Shown here: in pieces, positions 6,001 to 51,386 of the stretch
Position numbering within the stretch: the first letter of the stretch is position 1
How the letters are laid out: every line of letters begins with the position of its first letter
Assembly: GCA_020137815.1 (NCBI GenBank)
Contig: CM035354.1
Span: 1,364,001 to 1,428,000, forward strand
DNA: 64,000 nucleotides
DNA from: Hormiphora californensis
Lineage: Eukaryota; Animalia; Ctenophora
Direction: 5' to 3'
Position numbers and translations under genes: made by a program
Notes under the pieces: model-generated
Told to the model about the DNA's origin: nothing
Database searches by the model: none
The model's input: only the letters and a program-made list of their open reading frames with translations

Positions 6001-9000
6001 CGATTTATGGGGGGTCGTCCCCCGGACAAAAAGTCGTATCTCGCATCGTTTAGCCATTATTTGCATATTTATGCGCCGATTTATGATTTAATGCATATTC
6101 TGAATATTTCCACTTCAGCTGGTCCTAGAACGTTTTCATGGACATATTTCGACGCAAAATAGTCAATTTATGGGGGGTCTTACTCGGGACGAAAATCTCT
6201 ATCTCGCACCGTTAAGCCGTTATTTGCATATTTATGCACCGATTCATGATTTAATGCATATTCTTAATATTTTCACTTCGGCTGGTCCTAGAACGTTTTC
6301 ATGAACATATTCCAGCGCAGAATAGTCGATTTATGGGGGGTCGTCCCCCTAACAAAAAGTCGTATCTCTCACCGTTTAGTCGTTATTCGCATATTTATGA
6401 ACTATTCAAATTCGAAAATATGCAGAAATCAGAAAAAATAGCTTTTTCTATCTAACACCAAAAAGAACAGAAATTAAGTCCAAAAACCAATTAAATAAAT
6501 TAGTTTGGATGCCCGGGCCCATGTGGTGTCACGGGGGTAACACCTTTAGGCTACTGTCATAAATGATGGATATCGAGAGAGAGATAAAGGCAAAGGAAAT
6601 TAGGATTGAAAGAGTGAGATATAATATAAAAAGACGGAGAGAGAAAAAATGAGAGATATAGTGGAAGAAACAGTGAGAGAGAATGAGAGAGAGAAGTAGT
6701 GTGTGTGAGAGAGAGAGAGAGAGAGAGAGAGAGAGAGAGAGAGAGAGAGAGAGAGAGAGAGAGAGAGAGAGATAGATAGAGATAGAAAGATTGAAGGATA
6801 ACAATTAACAATTAACGAGATATGCCGTTAATTATGGCAGTAGCCTAAAGGTGTTACCCCCGTGACACCACATGGGCCCGGGCATCCAAACTAATTTATT
6901 TAATTGGTTTTTGGACTTAATATATATGTACCTGTTCTGTAAGTTTTGATTGATCCACAAGAGATTTCAACTCTCCTCCATCGCACAGCTCCAGAAATAA
7001 ATAGAGATGCTGGAAAAGGGAGGGTTTGTTAGAAAAAGATAGAGATGCTGGGAAAGGGAGGGTTTGTTAGAAAAATATAGAAATGCTGGGAAAGGGAGGG
7101 TTTGTTAGAAATAGCTGGGAAACTGAATAAGATATACAGGGGGATGACCAAGTTATTGAGCGGCTTGCACTGAAAAAAGAAACTCGTGCAGGCATAGATG
7201 TTTTGCACCATCCCATATGTCTTTCTACTTGCTCTGTCTATCTTTCTATTTGACATCATGTCCCCAGTCCAGTGTCTAGTGTCAACCCGTAATTTTCAAG
7301 AAATTGTAGCGGTGTGTTTCAAAAAGAATAAGAAGAAATAATTCTACTACTTGCCAGGCTCTGACTGTAATATCACACCTCTTGCAGCCGCACCGGGCCC
7401 TCGGTGCGAAGAGGATAGTACTCTTATTTGAGACATTCTACTACATATAATATTTTGTATCAAAAGAGGGGGGGGGGCGGTCGACGTTTTCTCGATAATC
7501 TGCTGCATGTTGCGGCCGGTTCGTAAAGACAGTTTAGACAATGTGTATCTCACTCTGTGGCTGTTATATCTCACTCTGTACTTATAAAACCGCCGCTAAG
7601 ATAAATGTTATGATATATTTCTCCCACGTTATCAATCTGTCTTCTTTCAATCATACCATCCCATCTATCACTTTTCTCATCCTTCTTCTATACCTCTTCA
7701 CCTAGTATTCACTATACGTGAAGTCTAACATTATATCCGATTAAATATATAATGAGCATGAACTTCACGTCATGCTCTTCATGACTAGTTCCCACGATCC
7801 TGGGTGGGCTACCAACTACCAACACTTCCTCAGAATGCTTAGGAGTACTTGTTCTAGAGTGAACAATTGAGTTATTTAAAACACAGTAATTGTTCGATGA
7901 ACTACAGCTGCTACGAAGGAATGGTTTTCATTTCAATATGTGGCCTCCTATTCGTGAGAATACAGCTATCTCTCGAAAACCAAAAACAGTTTTCAAGTAA
8001 TTTCCACCTCATCTCAAGATGAATGATGGATCTATTCAAAGAGAGCTCTCTTGACCAGATCTGCTTGTCAAGTAGTGTACATTTGAGTGTGCGGAGAGAG
8101 AGAGAGAGAGAGAGAGAGAGAGAGAGAGAGAAAGAGAGTGAGAGAGAGAGAGAGAGAGAGAGGGAGAGAGAGAGAGAGAGAGAGAGAGAGAGAGAGAGAG
8201 AGAGAGAGTGAGAGAGAGAGAAAGCTTTGAAAGAAGAACATAACATGCCTAGGAGACATATTGCTACAGGTAGGAATTCTCCTCATCCTCTGTTCAGTTC
8301 CTTAGAACCGCTCGGTAACTATCATGACCTTCATTATGATGAGGAGAGGGAGGGATAGAGAAAGATAGATAGATAGAGGGATAGAGAAAGATAGATGCAT
8401 CTGTCTACCACCCCTGACAGATCTATAACAATCCCTCCAATCCACTTTTCTAGTATTATCTAGCATATATCTTACTTTTTCAATCTCTATCTCTCACTCT
8501 TTCTCTCGTTCTCTCTCTCTCTCTCCCCCTCTCTCTCTCACTCTCTCTCACTCTCTCCATCAACCTCCAGCGGTTTTTTGCAAGGTGTGTTTCACATTAG
8601 TTTAGTTGGACATCACCAACATTACTACTACACCTTCTCTTCGGAAGAAATAACTCTAGATGAAATAATGAGAATGATCATTACATGCACACATTACTAG
8701 ACTTAGTTAGACGGGAGAGAGGAGATGGAGAGATAGAGAGAGAGAGAGAGAGAGAGAGAGAGAGAGAGAGAGAGAGAGAGAGAGAGAGATAGAGAGAAAG
8801 AGAGAGAGAGAGAGGGAGAGAGAGAGAGAGAGAGAGAGAGAGAGAGAGAGAGAGAGAGAGAGGGAGAGATCAGAGAGAGAGAGAGAGAGAGAGAGAGAGA
8901 GAGAAAAGGGGATTAAAAAAAGAGAGAGAGAGCACATTCCACCATCTTGCCGTCTGACAAGGGAAGAAGCGTGCAGGTGGTATACATTCGACCCCACCGA

Positions 9001-48968: not shown

Positions 48969-51386
48969 TAAATACTTTTTCCATGCCTGCATCACTAGAT
49001 CATACACCACCAAACACACCTGGAGATTGGGGTCATTATTTATTATTTAATCATTATTGTCCATGATAGTGGGCCCGATTTAGTGAGTGAACAAGCATAC
49101 TACTAGTATCCGGATTCCAAAAGTGGGTATAATCCGGTGGTGAATGGTGATTATCACCTGTTTGTCACCATGGCAACAAGATAGTGGCGTTCCTCAAAGT
49201 GCAGTATAGGTACTCACCCCGTTTGCGAGGAATGCCCTCATCCCACTGGGAGCGAAACCCTTGAAAAATGCTCCTGGTCCTTCACGGCGGTACTGAAACA
49301 TATAAATGTTGTTGATTGTTGATAGAAATGTGTCATTCGTGGATTGTACACTTCCAGAGATCTCCAGGGGATCTTGGGAGGTGCAAGGGAGGTTGTTACT
49401 GAACTCAGCTCAGGCCCTTTCAACAACTACATTTCCTTGCCTCCTTGGTGACATATAGACACCTGGTGCGACCCCCCGCAGTGCGACCCCCCGCACACAG
49501 GTGTCGGCTCCGCCCCAAAAAGGGTCGTTTCTTTCAAGGGATGTTGCACGCGATCCACTGGGTACCGAACCTTTTTTAGGGGGCGGAGCCGACACCTGTG
49601 TGCGGGGGTTCGCACCAGGTGTCAATGTCACCAACATATTTTCCTAGATGTTCTCCGGAACTTTCTCTTTACTCTGAACTCCTTGACGCACCATGTCAAA
49701 CTAACAAACGTCCATGAAGTTTTCAGTGATAACTGCAGGTTCGCCCTGCACTTCTTGAATTTCAGTCACGAGTGCTGCACAAATGCACTAGCGATATACA
49801 ACCTTGCAGTCTTCTTATCTAACCCACGCCTTTTAAAAACTTGCTATACGAGATATAAGTTGGGATGTGGGAATGCACTCCACCCCTAGTGCATTGCACA
49901 ATGTACATTATGTACAATGTACAGTACAATGTATATTGTATAATGTACAGATTGTACACATTGTCCAGCCCTCGAGGAACAAAACATGTTAGATTTGTTT
50001 AGCACAGCTTCAATTATAGTGTGTACCTACCAATTACCACTACCACTGCATTTACCAATTCTGGTGCCACGTCAAGGAATGAGTTATATTTCCCGGGGGG
50101 TGCAGTTTGGAACTTGGTCTTTAACACATCCGGAGGGACTCCCCACAGCCACATTGCCATTCCTCCCAATCCCCCAGCTAGCATTACAGAAGAAGAGGTC
50201 TCACCGTACCGCTGTGTGGTGGCTTGATAAAGGACGTAGAACAAGCCAGAGCCAGGTACATCTGAAGAATGGGGTATTGGGGAAATATTGGGTACTATTG
50301 GGTGATATTAGGATATATTGGGTACTATTGGGTGATATTAGGAATGGTGTGTTATCTAAGTAAGTAAGTAGAGATGAACGCCGTGGTTTACTAATCAATA
50401 AGTAATTACCCCTGAGAGCTGTGACAAAAGTTCCTCGGAAGACCTGTCGTAGTCCTCCCGTCCTGAGTGTCTGTCTCAACACATCCACCGGCCCACTATA
50501 CTGTCGGTGTGCCTTTCTTTTGTCTGTCTGTAACTGTATAGAAACGAGGGGTCAGGCCGTTATTTAGGGTGCAGATACTAAACCCATTGCATCATGGGCC
50601 CATAGGATCTATGGCATAGAAACGAGGGGTCAGGCCATTATTTAGGGTGGATAGATCTACATGGGTATCATACCCTTTCTGGATATTAGACATTGGACAT
50701 TGGATAAGGCGATATAATTGAGCGCAAAGGCTCGTGTTCCTTCTATCTTACCTGTAGTAAGCACTTGACTCTCTCCCCGGGAGCAATAATGAATGTCATG
50801 TATACCCCTGCCCAGAGACCCCCAATCCCATGATTCAGCACTCCCATCTCCTCTCGACCCAAGACGTGCTGCTGGAACCGGATCATGTGATCGTGACCCA
50901 GGAACCACACTGCTGAATATGGGATGCATGCCAGGAGAGGTGTTGACATGCCCTTGTAGAGCGCTCTAGGTCCCTCTCGGGTAACGGTCTTCCGGAGACA
51001 ATCAAGGGAGGATCTGTAGACGGAGCCCTTGACTTGGTTCTGCATACGCACCTGCGCCGGGGAATAAGGATTGTTATACTCATAGGGGCCGTACTTAGTG
51101 TTTCATGGATCTCCTTTTCCCTAACTGGAAGTTAATCCTTTCTTCTATAATGTAAAACTATAGCTGCTAGTAAAAACAAGGAACAATATGGAACACTCTA
51201 GTGTTTTGAATGTTAGTAAACCTACCTTGATGGTATCGAAGGGTTGTCCGGTGACAAGAAATGCTAAGTTAGTAAACCTACCTTGATTGTATCGAAGGGT
51301 TGCCCGGTGACAAGGAATGCAGCACCACTGATTCCACCCGCAACAAAAGATCTGATCCCTGTCGGGTCATCCTCAGCAATCCCCAT
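48927..51386 (-). CDS. Second carnitine/acylcarnitine carrier-like (SLC25A20 paralogue)
   Basis: Exons 51386-51282 (GQPFDTIK), 51051-50752 (LYKGM..APGERVKCLLQ), 50533-50410, 50261-50056 (PPDVLKTKFQTAPPGKY), 49292-49218 (FFKGF..RAFLANG) and 49019-48927. All in phase. Confidence 0.9.
49458..49623. mobile_element. Small palindromic MITE
   Basis: GACACCTGGTGCGA ... TCGCACCAGGTGTC with inner arms CCCCCGCACACAGGTGTCGGCTCCGCCCC. Confidence 0.75.

Follow-up and report, generated by a model that had tools for sequence, protein, structure and literature searches.

Why do the edges of exons recur in tandem within the adjoining introns of a ctenophore genome, and why do these copies depart from the working exons mostly by silent changes? 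The question arises from a 64,000-nucleotide stretch of Hormiphora californensis, a pleurobrachiid ctenophore (GCA_020137815.1, contig CM035354.1, positions 1,364,001 to 1,428,000; hereafter the window). A first reading of this DNA, the original prediction, described such arrays at ten or more junctions in six genes, knew of no earlier description as a genome-wide feature, and ascribed the silent bias to past or present protein-level selection on the copied pieces.

Results

Copies of exon edges in adjoining introns

Eight gene models comprising 47 introns and 94 splice junctions were built by coordinate; all are open in frame except for the last lectin exon, which carries a 1-base frameshift. 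We take the kinase gene to be STK33, and the gene with arrays at 12185-12339 and 12626-12877 is presumably RPA2. Pfam identifies a kinase domain in the STK33-like gene and a MENTAL domain in the MENTAL part of STARD3, and gives no support for the RPA2 label. STARD3 is composed of this MENTAL part and a START part, the link between the two being putative. The RPA2 acceptor join matches the P. bachei gene model P0065, and the frame and join of the START part match P0052 of the same species; both models, which are predictions, join at the site next to the exon body.

Using a fixed rule (ungapped matches with a score of at least 11 and at least 8 exonic bases, in the adjoining intron), we find junction-spanning copies of the exon edge at 11 of the 94 junctions, 28 copies in all, in the kinase, RPA2, STARD3 (MENTAL and START parts), lectin and both SLC25A20 genes (Table 1). 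These junctions carry one to eight extra copies each, and neighbouring units lie 38-107 bp apart, with one at 169. Under the same rule none of 246 non-adjacent exon/intron pairs shows a copy. The predicted extent is borne out with the exception of the nine-copy array, which was rejected as a splice-junction array; it sits at a stop codon and 3' UTR and not at an exon-intron junction, and it holds one synonymous and one replacement variant in eight copies. Three duplicates below threshold were not counted, namely the eIF2D-like acceptor, the first donor of SLC25A20 gene 1 and a MENTAL donor at 28101. A duplicate at 19072-19197 was left out; it belongs to a frameshifted gene with no Pfam match, where the silent or replacement reading depends on the frame chosen.

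Table 1. Exon-edge arrays and related duplicates in the window
Feature	Position	Strand	Description
Kinase (STK33-like) acceptor array	6993..7111	-	exon start 7009, two upstream copies, 38-bp unit
RPA2 acceptor array	12185..12339	-	exon start 12208, two copies, 3 synonymous changes; some haplotypes only
RPA2 donor array	12626..12877	-	exon end 12824, two copies, 90-bp unit, 3 synonymous changes
eIF2D-like acceptor duplicate (below threshold, uncounted)	14106..14161	-	10 exonic bases, one synonymous change
STARD3 START-part donor array	24264..24978	-	exon end 24943, eight copies, 2 synonymous and 1 replacement variants
STARD3 MENTAL-part acceptor array	28961..29100	-	exon start 28974, one copy, 14 exonic bases identical; partial unit
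STARD3 MENTAL-part acceptor array	29752..30133	-	exon start 29791, four copies, 83-bp unit, 1 synonymous variant
Lectin last-exon acceptor	41242..41506	-	exon start 41269, two short exon fragments upstream, 1 synonymous variant
Ig/C-type lectin acceptor array	42031..42233	-	exon start 42064, two copies, 2 synonymous and 2 replacement variants
SLC25A20 gene 1 exon 1 donor duplicate (below threshold, uncounted)	43884..43952	+	4-5 exonic bases
SLC25A20 gene 1 acceptor array	45638..46045	+	exon start 46007, four copies
SLC25A20 gene 1 acceptor duplicate	46336..46404	+	exon start 46391, one identical 14-base copy
SLC25A20 gene 2 67-bp x9 array (uncounted)	48367..48968	-	last 13 codons, stop codon, 3' UTR
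SLC25A20 gene 2 donor duplicate	51212..51320	-	exon end 51282, one copy

Enrichment at junctions, proposed originally as a check, is found within the window: 10 of 21 intron arrays span at least 8 exon bases against 4.9 expected, i.e. about two-fold (p about 0.004 under a crude null), and 17 of 21 span or lie at most 20 bases from a splice site against 10.0 expected. The list of 21 holds two GA-rich false arrays, which barely alter the expectation. AG or GT is intact in all 28 copies, in a search whose demand for site-spanning matches favours such retention. Spliced as simple alternative sites, all 28 would meet an early stop (micro-exon routes lie outside this count), which disfavours the earlier suggestion that copies reach the mRNA. 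Within the STARD3, RPA2 and lectin arrays some variants are common to several copies (compared without a tree). The two fragments at the last lectin exon are separated by an amplified branch/pyrimidine minisatellite.

The arrays were checked against public short-read contigs over 11930-12915 and 43210-51610, the RPA2 and SLC25A20 stretches, in samples S1 (possibly the window's own source sample) and S2 (a second sample), which come from two studies; these contigs are assembled and are not single molecules. Single contigs bridge 51212-51320 with 0 differences in both samples, one contig (run X5) bridges 46336-46404, and every joint of the RPA2 acceptor array is carried by three overlapping contigs at single-haplotype depth. 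The RPA2 and SLC25A20 copies checked in this way are real DNA, since short-read contigs of one or two samples carry them.

Run X1 holds another form of the array in SLC25A20 gene 1, in which the joint 45780-45991 has 17 other letters. The window matches of run X7 are simple repeats only. No run recorded as RNA from this organism appears among those listed for the stretch, which says nothing on expression. Run X8, RNA by guess, gave four contigs, all less than 90% alike and probably from another species, one of them with a loose end at 46389, beside the acceptor at 46391. When metagenomes were scanned with the lectin exon, a single homologue came up (L001, 57%), too distant to polarise silent sites and, by eye, with no junction copy.

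Copies differ from exons mostly at silent sites

Comparing copies with their exons, we count 19 synonymous and 7 replacement variants among the distinct exonic differences (5, 1 and 20 at the three codon positions), in agreement with the 18-20 and 7-8 tallied by hand before. With a synonymous site share of 0.25, the pooled dN/dS is about 0.12 and neutral copies are rejected (p 3e-7). The one-quarter null used in the original prediction is too lenient, as an old neutral copy beside a constrained exon is expected to show a synonymous share of about 0.40; the tally rejects this as well (p 6e-4), and also a share of 0.45 (p 0.004). Terminal mismatches were left out of the tally, such as the M/L change that ends the far RPA2 copy; with this change added it becomes 19:8 (p 0.0014 against 0.40). 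When the two strongest arrays are dropped, p is 0.02-0.06 against the 0.40-0.45 null. Per copy, dS is 0.12 and dN 0.014, and 11 of the 29 copy segments show no difference from the exon.

As variants inside one copy are not independent, the arrays can also be taken as units: of the nine with variants, seven have more synonymous changes, one is tied and one is reversed (sign test p 0.035). The reversed one is the kinase array (1 synonymous, 3 replacement), where three variants lie near the unit end and may be breakpoints. Three junctions show 3:0, among them SLC25A20 gene 2, with 3 synonymous and 0 other changes in the 53 bases of 51212-51264. At two of three sites this copy has the codons of the paralogue, a likeness judged too weak to use. 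In the 45638..46045 array three copies are identical and the fourth carries 3 synonymous and 1 replacement changes, while in the lectin array at 42031..42233 both copies have E where the exon has D, E also being found in all three full-length close relatives that cover the site. In S2 the RPA2 donor array has two further copy variants, both synonymous, and many more unit contigs, whose summed depth was not used as copy number. The replacements, described before as mostly conservative, are not all so, one being P to R, and the A/V change cited in this context lies in the uncounted 48367-48968 array. The counts support the view that the copied exon pieces bear the mark of protein-level selection, as had been proposed.

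Allelic divergence and haplotype structure

In the read contigs, exon differences between alleles are 17:0 synonymous to replacement in RPA2 (17 exonic among all 37 differences) and 9:0 in SLC25A20 gene 1 (among 40 of 204 differences listed), hence 26:0 when pooled with the same restriction on the SLC25A20 part. Single-haplotype dS in RPA2 is 5/27 and 8/27.75 (0.19-0.29), large enough to supply the differences between copies and exons. Replacements are commoner in copies than in alleles (19:7 versus 26:0 among the differences listed, Fisher p 0.01), as expected from later neutral decay of the copies; with a small ORF added the alleles stand at 31:3 (among the differences listed) and the contrast is no longer clear (p 0.085). 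A member of the same family is reported to have 3.2% heterozygosity and indel-rich introns (PMC8527503).

Of four haplotypes, one (the window) has two copies at the RPA2 intron 2 acceptor, two have none and one has a copy at least in part. The two copy-free haplotypes, i.e. the other S1 haplotype and one from S2, depart from the window at 12217 and 12211 into an unrelated segment common to both, and they differ from each other in the bases adjoining the AG, which places the breakpoints within about 10 bases of the exon edge. In another S2 haplotype one copy is retained, at least partly (12269-12312), and there it adjoins a different acceptor end. An allelic intron can be unrelated sequence to within a few bases of the splice site. 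Of the haplotype check suggested originally, variation in copy number is confirmed at this acceptor, but its copy variants are not seen as exon alleles: the RPA2 acceptor copies carry three synonymous states, and the differences listed for the working exon in the three remaining haplotypes include none of them. The SLC25A20 gene 2 stretch 49580-51610 has only 1 allelic difference and the same array in both samples, and with such near-zero variation a donor allele of the 51212 copy would have to predate local coalescence.

Discussion

The structure described here is the mirage known from amphioxus, now in a ctenophore, and not an undescribed system: a tandem unit spans the exon boundary, extra copies lie in the adjoining intron, AG or GT is kept and haplotypes differ in copy number. 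The naming paper is reportedly that of Canestro et al. (2002). Amphioxus is likewise a polymorphic marine invertebrate in which tandem units span acceptor or donor boundaries in several genes unrelated to one another (Adh3, the globins BflGb6 and BflGb9, troponin C and PGBD5), many units keep AG/GT and copy number varies between haplotypes (PMC3087553, PMC3902484); the unit is 10-160 bp (PMC3087553), comparable to the spacing found here. What differs is that the silent bias has here been quantified and linked to the divergence of alleles and to their unrelated introns, whereas the main texts on amphioxus do not use the word 'synonymous' and call the mechanism unclear or leave it open (PMC3087553, PMC3902484). 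By eye count, the published BflGb6 alignment (PMC3087553, supplement 4) appears to show the same silent bias: the two working exons differ 5:0, haplotype-1 copies differ from their own exon by about 15:7, and 4 of the 5 haplotype-2 exon states are present in haplotype-1 copies. Our literature searches, which covered few subscription papers, turned up no description of junction repeats as silently biased or as captured alleles, and no answer on mirage origin after the 2010 statement 'unclear' (PMC3087553).

Human parallels exist as well. The first unit of the 37-bp VNTR in F7 intron 7 spans the exon 7 boundary and repeated donor sites follow the authentic one, functional but silent; unlike the present case this is a single locus with identical pseudo-sites, and its abstract describes no mosaic of alleles (PMC1557585). 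Internal tandem repeats at the exon boundaries of human segmental-duplication genes also arise by exon-edge minisatellite expansion that leaves intronic units, but they vary between paralogues, and here the variation is between alleles of single-copy genes (PMC2812944). The same kind of duplication is the raw material proposed for intron gain from AG/GT segments (Rogers model; Zhuo 2007; Gao and Lynch 2009; cited in PMC3087553), and the GT and internal AG required by that model are present in the RPA2 acceptor copies, although no new intron or exon is demonstrated in the window.

We interpret the arrays as mirage duplications whose silent bias likely reflects the exon edges of other alleles, stranded by recombination between divergent homologues and predicted to lie outside the protein; we assign this reading a probability of roughly 0.65. 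Between alleles up to 19-29% of synonymous sites differ and replacements are nearly absent; since allelic introns can be unrelated near the splice site, exons stand out as islands of homology. An unequal exchange or a repair event that involves both homologues would begin in the exon and stop imprecisely where homology ends, doubling the edge; alternatively, a same-chromosome duplicate may arise first and a later crossover or conversion swap the working edge for that of another allele. By either route the differences between copy and exon would be allelic, already purified and mostly silent. Slippage or unequal exchange may then multiply the units into identical copies, in line with the observed copy-number variation, and neutral decay would add a few replacements while splicing presumably uses the site adjoining the exon body. 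Against this reading, the source allele of the RPA2 acceptor copies does not appear among the three other haplotypes as listed, the SLC25A20 gene 2 copy would need a donor allele older than local coalescence, the kinase array is reversed and no recombinant was caught arising; shared states could also be ancestral ones retained in an old copy.

Other explanations were weighed against stranded allele edges. The treadmill of the original prediction runs both ways: copies and exon edge would evolve in concert, the copies overwriting the edge by conversion or collapse and so purging replacements. The archiving of former edges by allele exchange fits the haplotype data, array copy number varies, and in the amphioxus alignment (by eye; PMC3087553) both states occur among the copies at 3 of the 5 sites that differ between working exons. 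The exon-identical segments and the retained AG/GT would also be in keeping with it, but with dN at 0.014 per site, 56 sites should show less than one change in a splice dinucleotide, so that retention says little. The swap back into the exon finds no counterpart in the RPA2 haplotypes, whose working exons lack the copy-specific states as listed, and one-way capture accounts for the counts without selection on copies; we regard the two-way version as unlikely. Improbable, in our view, are old neutral duplicates on the same chromosome, in which the exon gathers silent changes and the copy random ones, any further excess arising at random or from the way the copy ends were delimited. This requires no special event, predicts a synonymous share above the 0.25 used before, accommodates the ancestral E in the lectin copies and gains from the weaker significance when the best arrays are removed. 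Against it stand the rejection of both 0.40 and 0.45, the three 3:0 junctions, the 51212-51264 copy with its three silent changes and none at the other 50 bases, and the polymorphism of copies in presence and number.

A continuing role in the protein, with copies entering the mRNA as micro-exons or alternative sites, is a little less probable again. On paper a seamless route exists: the RPA2 acceptor copies contain a GT after 13 bases of their exon-like part, the corresponding position of the working exon (12195) is an AG, and every copy keeps its AG or GT. However, simple use of the copies would end in early stops, two of the three silent RPA2 changes would fall in the spliced-out part, two haplotypes lack the RPA2 acceptor copies altogether, and RT-PCR of amphioxus mirages found no aberrant mRNA (PMC3087553). 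The same stops together with intact sites could make the copies decoys that tune expression through nonsense-mediated decay, which we consider very improbable: decoys do not need amino-acid conservation, so the silent bias stays unexplained, haplotypes of housekeeping genes differ in whether copies are present and in their number, and the F7 pseudo-sites are silent (PMC1557585). No more credit is due to an assembly artefact in which two alleles are written consecutively in the consensus. Such a consensus would likewise be biased towards silent changes, the window has noisy sequence at 60632-64000 besides the lectin frameshift, and a P. bachei assembly is reported to hold unmerged haplotypes (PMC8527503), but contigs from public runs carry the RPA2 copy joints and bridge both SLC25A20 duplicates, that of gene 2 in both samples, and for the read-checked arrays this explanation is largely refuted.

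On the reading as stranded allele edges, the repeats are probably tolerated debris and not a regulatory system. In practical work they can lead gene annotation astray and be taken for assembly errors. The silent bias provides a countable signature for mirage origin, and allelic divergence allows predictions in numbers: the dS between copy and exon is expected to follow that between local alleles, and mirages should be denser in species of higher heterozygosity. A wider proposal, possible but doubtful at present, is that exon edges are routine break zones for exchange between homologues in very polymorphic animals, where exons would be the only islands that align well, and that mirages are a genome-wide, two-way archive of former and foreign alleles; if true, such a rule would account for the frequency of mirages in lancelets and now in ctenophores, and would tie heterozygosity to splice-site turnover and intron gain. 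If the capture of allele edges itself holds, lost alleles would survive in introns as short records, and one way in which splice sites shift and introns are gained would become measurable.

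Exon-edge copies at splice junctions

The window is compact animal genome, in which we built gene models by coordinate for eight genes with 47 introns and 94 junctions: a kinase, RPA2, an eIF2D-like gene, the MENTAL and START parts of STARD3, an Ig/C-type lectin and two SLC25A20 genes. Pfam matches back the labels kinase, SWIB+SUI1, MENTAL, START, carrier and lectin, and a Pfam search with the RPA2 protein gave no match; from motif likeness we take the kinase to be STK33 and this other gene to be RPA2. The START-domain exon (82 residues) is 100% identical to Pleurobrachia bachei P008767 in EukProt, equivalent to gene model P0052, and two P. 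bachei models match RPA2 at 96-97% identity, while several further residues distinguish the P. bachei proteins from those of the window. We therefore assign the window to the Pleurobrachiidae. P0052 begins at the START part of STARD3.

Every exon was compared with all introns of its own gene under fixed rules. By this search 11 of the 94 junctions have junction-spanning copies, which always lie in the adjoining intron; the 246 non-adjacent exon/intron pairs yielded none. Among the 21 local repeat arrays touching modelled introns, 10 have at least 8 bases inside an exon (4.9 expected, p ~0.004) and 17 either cross a splice site or come within 20 bases of one (10.0 expected, p ~1.5e-4), both against a crude null. 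As the null is rough and many such overlaps are likely by chance in small introns, we put the junction enrichment at about two-fold. The nine-copy array counted in the original prediction as a junction array covers a coding end and 3' UTR rather than a junction. Purely intronic duplications of branch point and pyrimidine tract probably arose in the same way as the junction copies and include no exon sequence.

Features of the window by position (X1 and X5, sequencing runs of DNA samples S1 and S2)
Position	Feature	Observation
3961-4030	branch/pyrimidine duplication, purely intronic	ends 2-19 bases before acceptor
12185-12339	RPA2 acceptor array	three overlapping X1 contigs, 0 differences, single-haplotype depth
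18300-21450, minus strand	spliced gene with frameshifts	no Pfam match; resembles a DNA transposase
19072-19197	duplicate at 86-base spacing	adjoins acceptor of the frameshifted gene 18300-21450
25009-28101	3-kb gap between STARD3 MENTAL and START parts	no in-frame join; possible causes: a split gene, an overlooked exon or an indel in the assembly
30725-34900	700-bp repeated elements	flank the LINE-like frames
35537-38404	reverse transcriptase/endonuclease frames	putatively LINE-like, family by motifs
41208	lectin last exon	one additional base, frame shifted relative to relatives; assembly error or broken allele
41283-41428	branch/pyrimidine duplication, purely intronic	ends 2-19 bases before acceptor
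43254-43556	intronless ORF, 100 residues	no Pfam match
45059-45112	branch/pyrimidine duplication, purely intronic	ends 2-19 bases before acceptor
46336-46404	SLC25A20 gene 1 duplicate	bridged by S2 contig
48367-48968	final 13 codons of SLC25A20 gene 2, its stop and the beginning of the 3' UTR	nine near-identical copies; entered by contigs from both samples
49580-51610	SLC25A20 gene 2 region	no difference in X1 across 2031 bases, a single one in three X5 contigs; neighbouring genes very polymorphic; SLC25A20 gene 2 may have undergone a recent sweep
50281-50343	branch/pyrimidine duplication, purely intronic	ends 2-19 bases before acceptor
50538-50649	branch/pyrimidine duplication, purely intronic	ends 2-19 bases before acceptor
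51212-51320	SLC25A20 gene 2 donor duplicate	bridged by single contigs with 0 differences, both samples
60632-64000	50-bp satellite	increasingly indel-ridden toward window end, resembling unpolished long-read sequence

Matching stretches occur in six public DNA runs, which represent two samples and two studies, and S1 may be the source sample of the window. The expectation that reads would carry the arrays holds for the RPA2 acceptor and the two SLC25A20 duplicates, in a check made on contigs rather than single molecules and confined to arrays of RPA2 and the SLC25A20 genes. A further run, X8, bears the same species label as X1, yet its carrier-gene contigs are less than 90% alike, indicating either a mislabelled run or a cryptic species.

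AG or GT is kept in 28 of 28 copies, and all 28 are predicted to cause an early stop if used as simple alternative sites; for RPA2 there is one on-paper route to a seamless micro-exon. By analogy with amphioxus mirages (PMC3087553) and human F7 (PMC1557585), where splicing is reported to take the exon-adjacent site, we infer that splicing uses this site here.

Silent bias of copies and alleles

The exon-edge copies and their mostly synonymous changes, both put forward in the original prediction, were confirmed, with 19 synonymous against 7 replacement differences among the distinct exonic changes and 20 of 26 at third positions. A neutral copy would give a synonymous fraction of 0.25 (p 3e-7), and an old neutral copy beside an exon with silent changes only 0.40 (p 6e-4). 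The bias persists when an M/L end variant is added or doubtful kinase positions are removed; without the two best arrays p is 0.02-0.06 against a null of 0.40-0.45. Seven of the nine arrays carrying variants lean synonymous, and the kinase array leans the opposite way, replacement over synonymous.

In the contigs used for the array check, alleles are likewise strongly divergent at silent sites. Exonic differences between alleles are synonymous in 17 of 17 cases for RPA2 (all 37 rows of the comparison) and in 9 of 9 for SLC25A20 gene 1 (among 40 of 204 rows); in RPA2, 5 of 27 synonymous sites of exon 3 differ on one haplotype and 8 of ~28 in exon 2 on another. Alleles of the small intronless ORF differ by 5:3 synonymous to replacement changes, the second S1 haplotype showing 8 differences in 113 bases. 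Given this silent divergence, a mean copy-exon dS of 0.12 and dN of 0.014, and the identity of 11 of 29 copy segments to the exon, a mixture of same-allele and other-allele copies with slight later decay accounts for the numbers.

Comparison with amphioxus mirages

The copies share with amphioxus mirages tandem units across an exon-intron boundary, a unit length in the reported range, kept AG/GT signals and a copy number that differs between haplotypes. The structure, of which the original prediction knew no description as a genome-wide feature, is of a known kind; its occurrence in a ctenophore is new as far as our searches reach. Mirages are tandem repeats across exon-intron boundaries, named in amphioxus Adh3, with further cases in globins, troponin C and PGBD5, a haplotype-variable number and seemingly undisturbed splicing (PMC3087553, PMC3902484); their origin is termed unclear (PMC3087553).

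As an outside test we counted differences by eye in the published BflGb6 alignment (PMC3087553 supplement 4). The two working exons differ by 5:0 synonymous to replacement changes, and the haplotype-1 copies differ from their own exon by about 15:7, a count that includes one stop, and by two indels. For copies D3-D5 the ratio is 6:0, with one of the six at a copy end. Of the five exon states of haplotype 2, four recur in haplotype-1 copies, and at three of the five differing sites both states occur among the copies. The word "synonymous" is absent from the main text of the amphioxus paper (PMC3087553), and a literature search for silent bias in junction repeats, with the paper naming mirages outside it, found no report.

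Origin of the copies

The copies exist, differ between haplotypes, lean synonymous and sit where allelic homology ends. RPA2 intron 2 contains two copies in the window haplotype and none in the second S1 haplotype or in one S2 haplotype. These two copy-free haplotypes pass into a common unrelated segment after 12217 and 12211, respectively, and the bases beside their AG are not alike. Another S2 haplotype retains at least 12269-12312 of a copy, attached to a different acceptor end. The haplotypes are therefore mosaic, with the breaks falling at the edge of the exon.

The best explanation, to which we assign a probability of roughly two in three, is that exchange between divergent homologues left exon edges of another allele in the intron. 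Exchange could itself have made the intron copy from another allele; alternatively, a local duplication would have come first and a later exchange would have replaced the working edge. After either route, units would multiply and then decay, and the present evidence cannot separate the two. The lectin points the same way: both copies and all three close full-length relatives have E where the working exon has D. Against the explanation, none of the three RPA2 copy states was listed in the three other working exons of the contig comparison and the 51212 copy lies in a stretch nearly without allelic variation, so that the donor alleles are not directly seen; the kinase array, too, leans the other way.

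That exon edges are in general exchange zones, at which mirages trade sequence with the working exon in both directions, seems to us rather unlikely as a rule. What makes the copies interesting is a silent bias that has been measured, agrees with allelic divergence and recurs in amphioxus; taken together, these points provide a testable origin for mirages.
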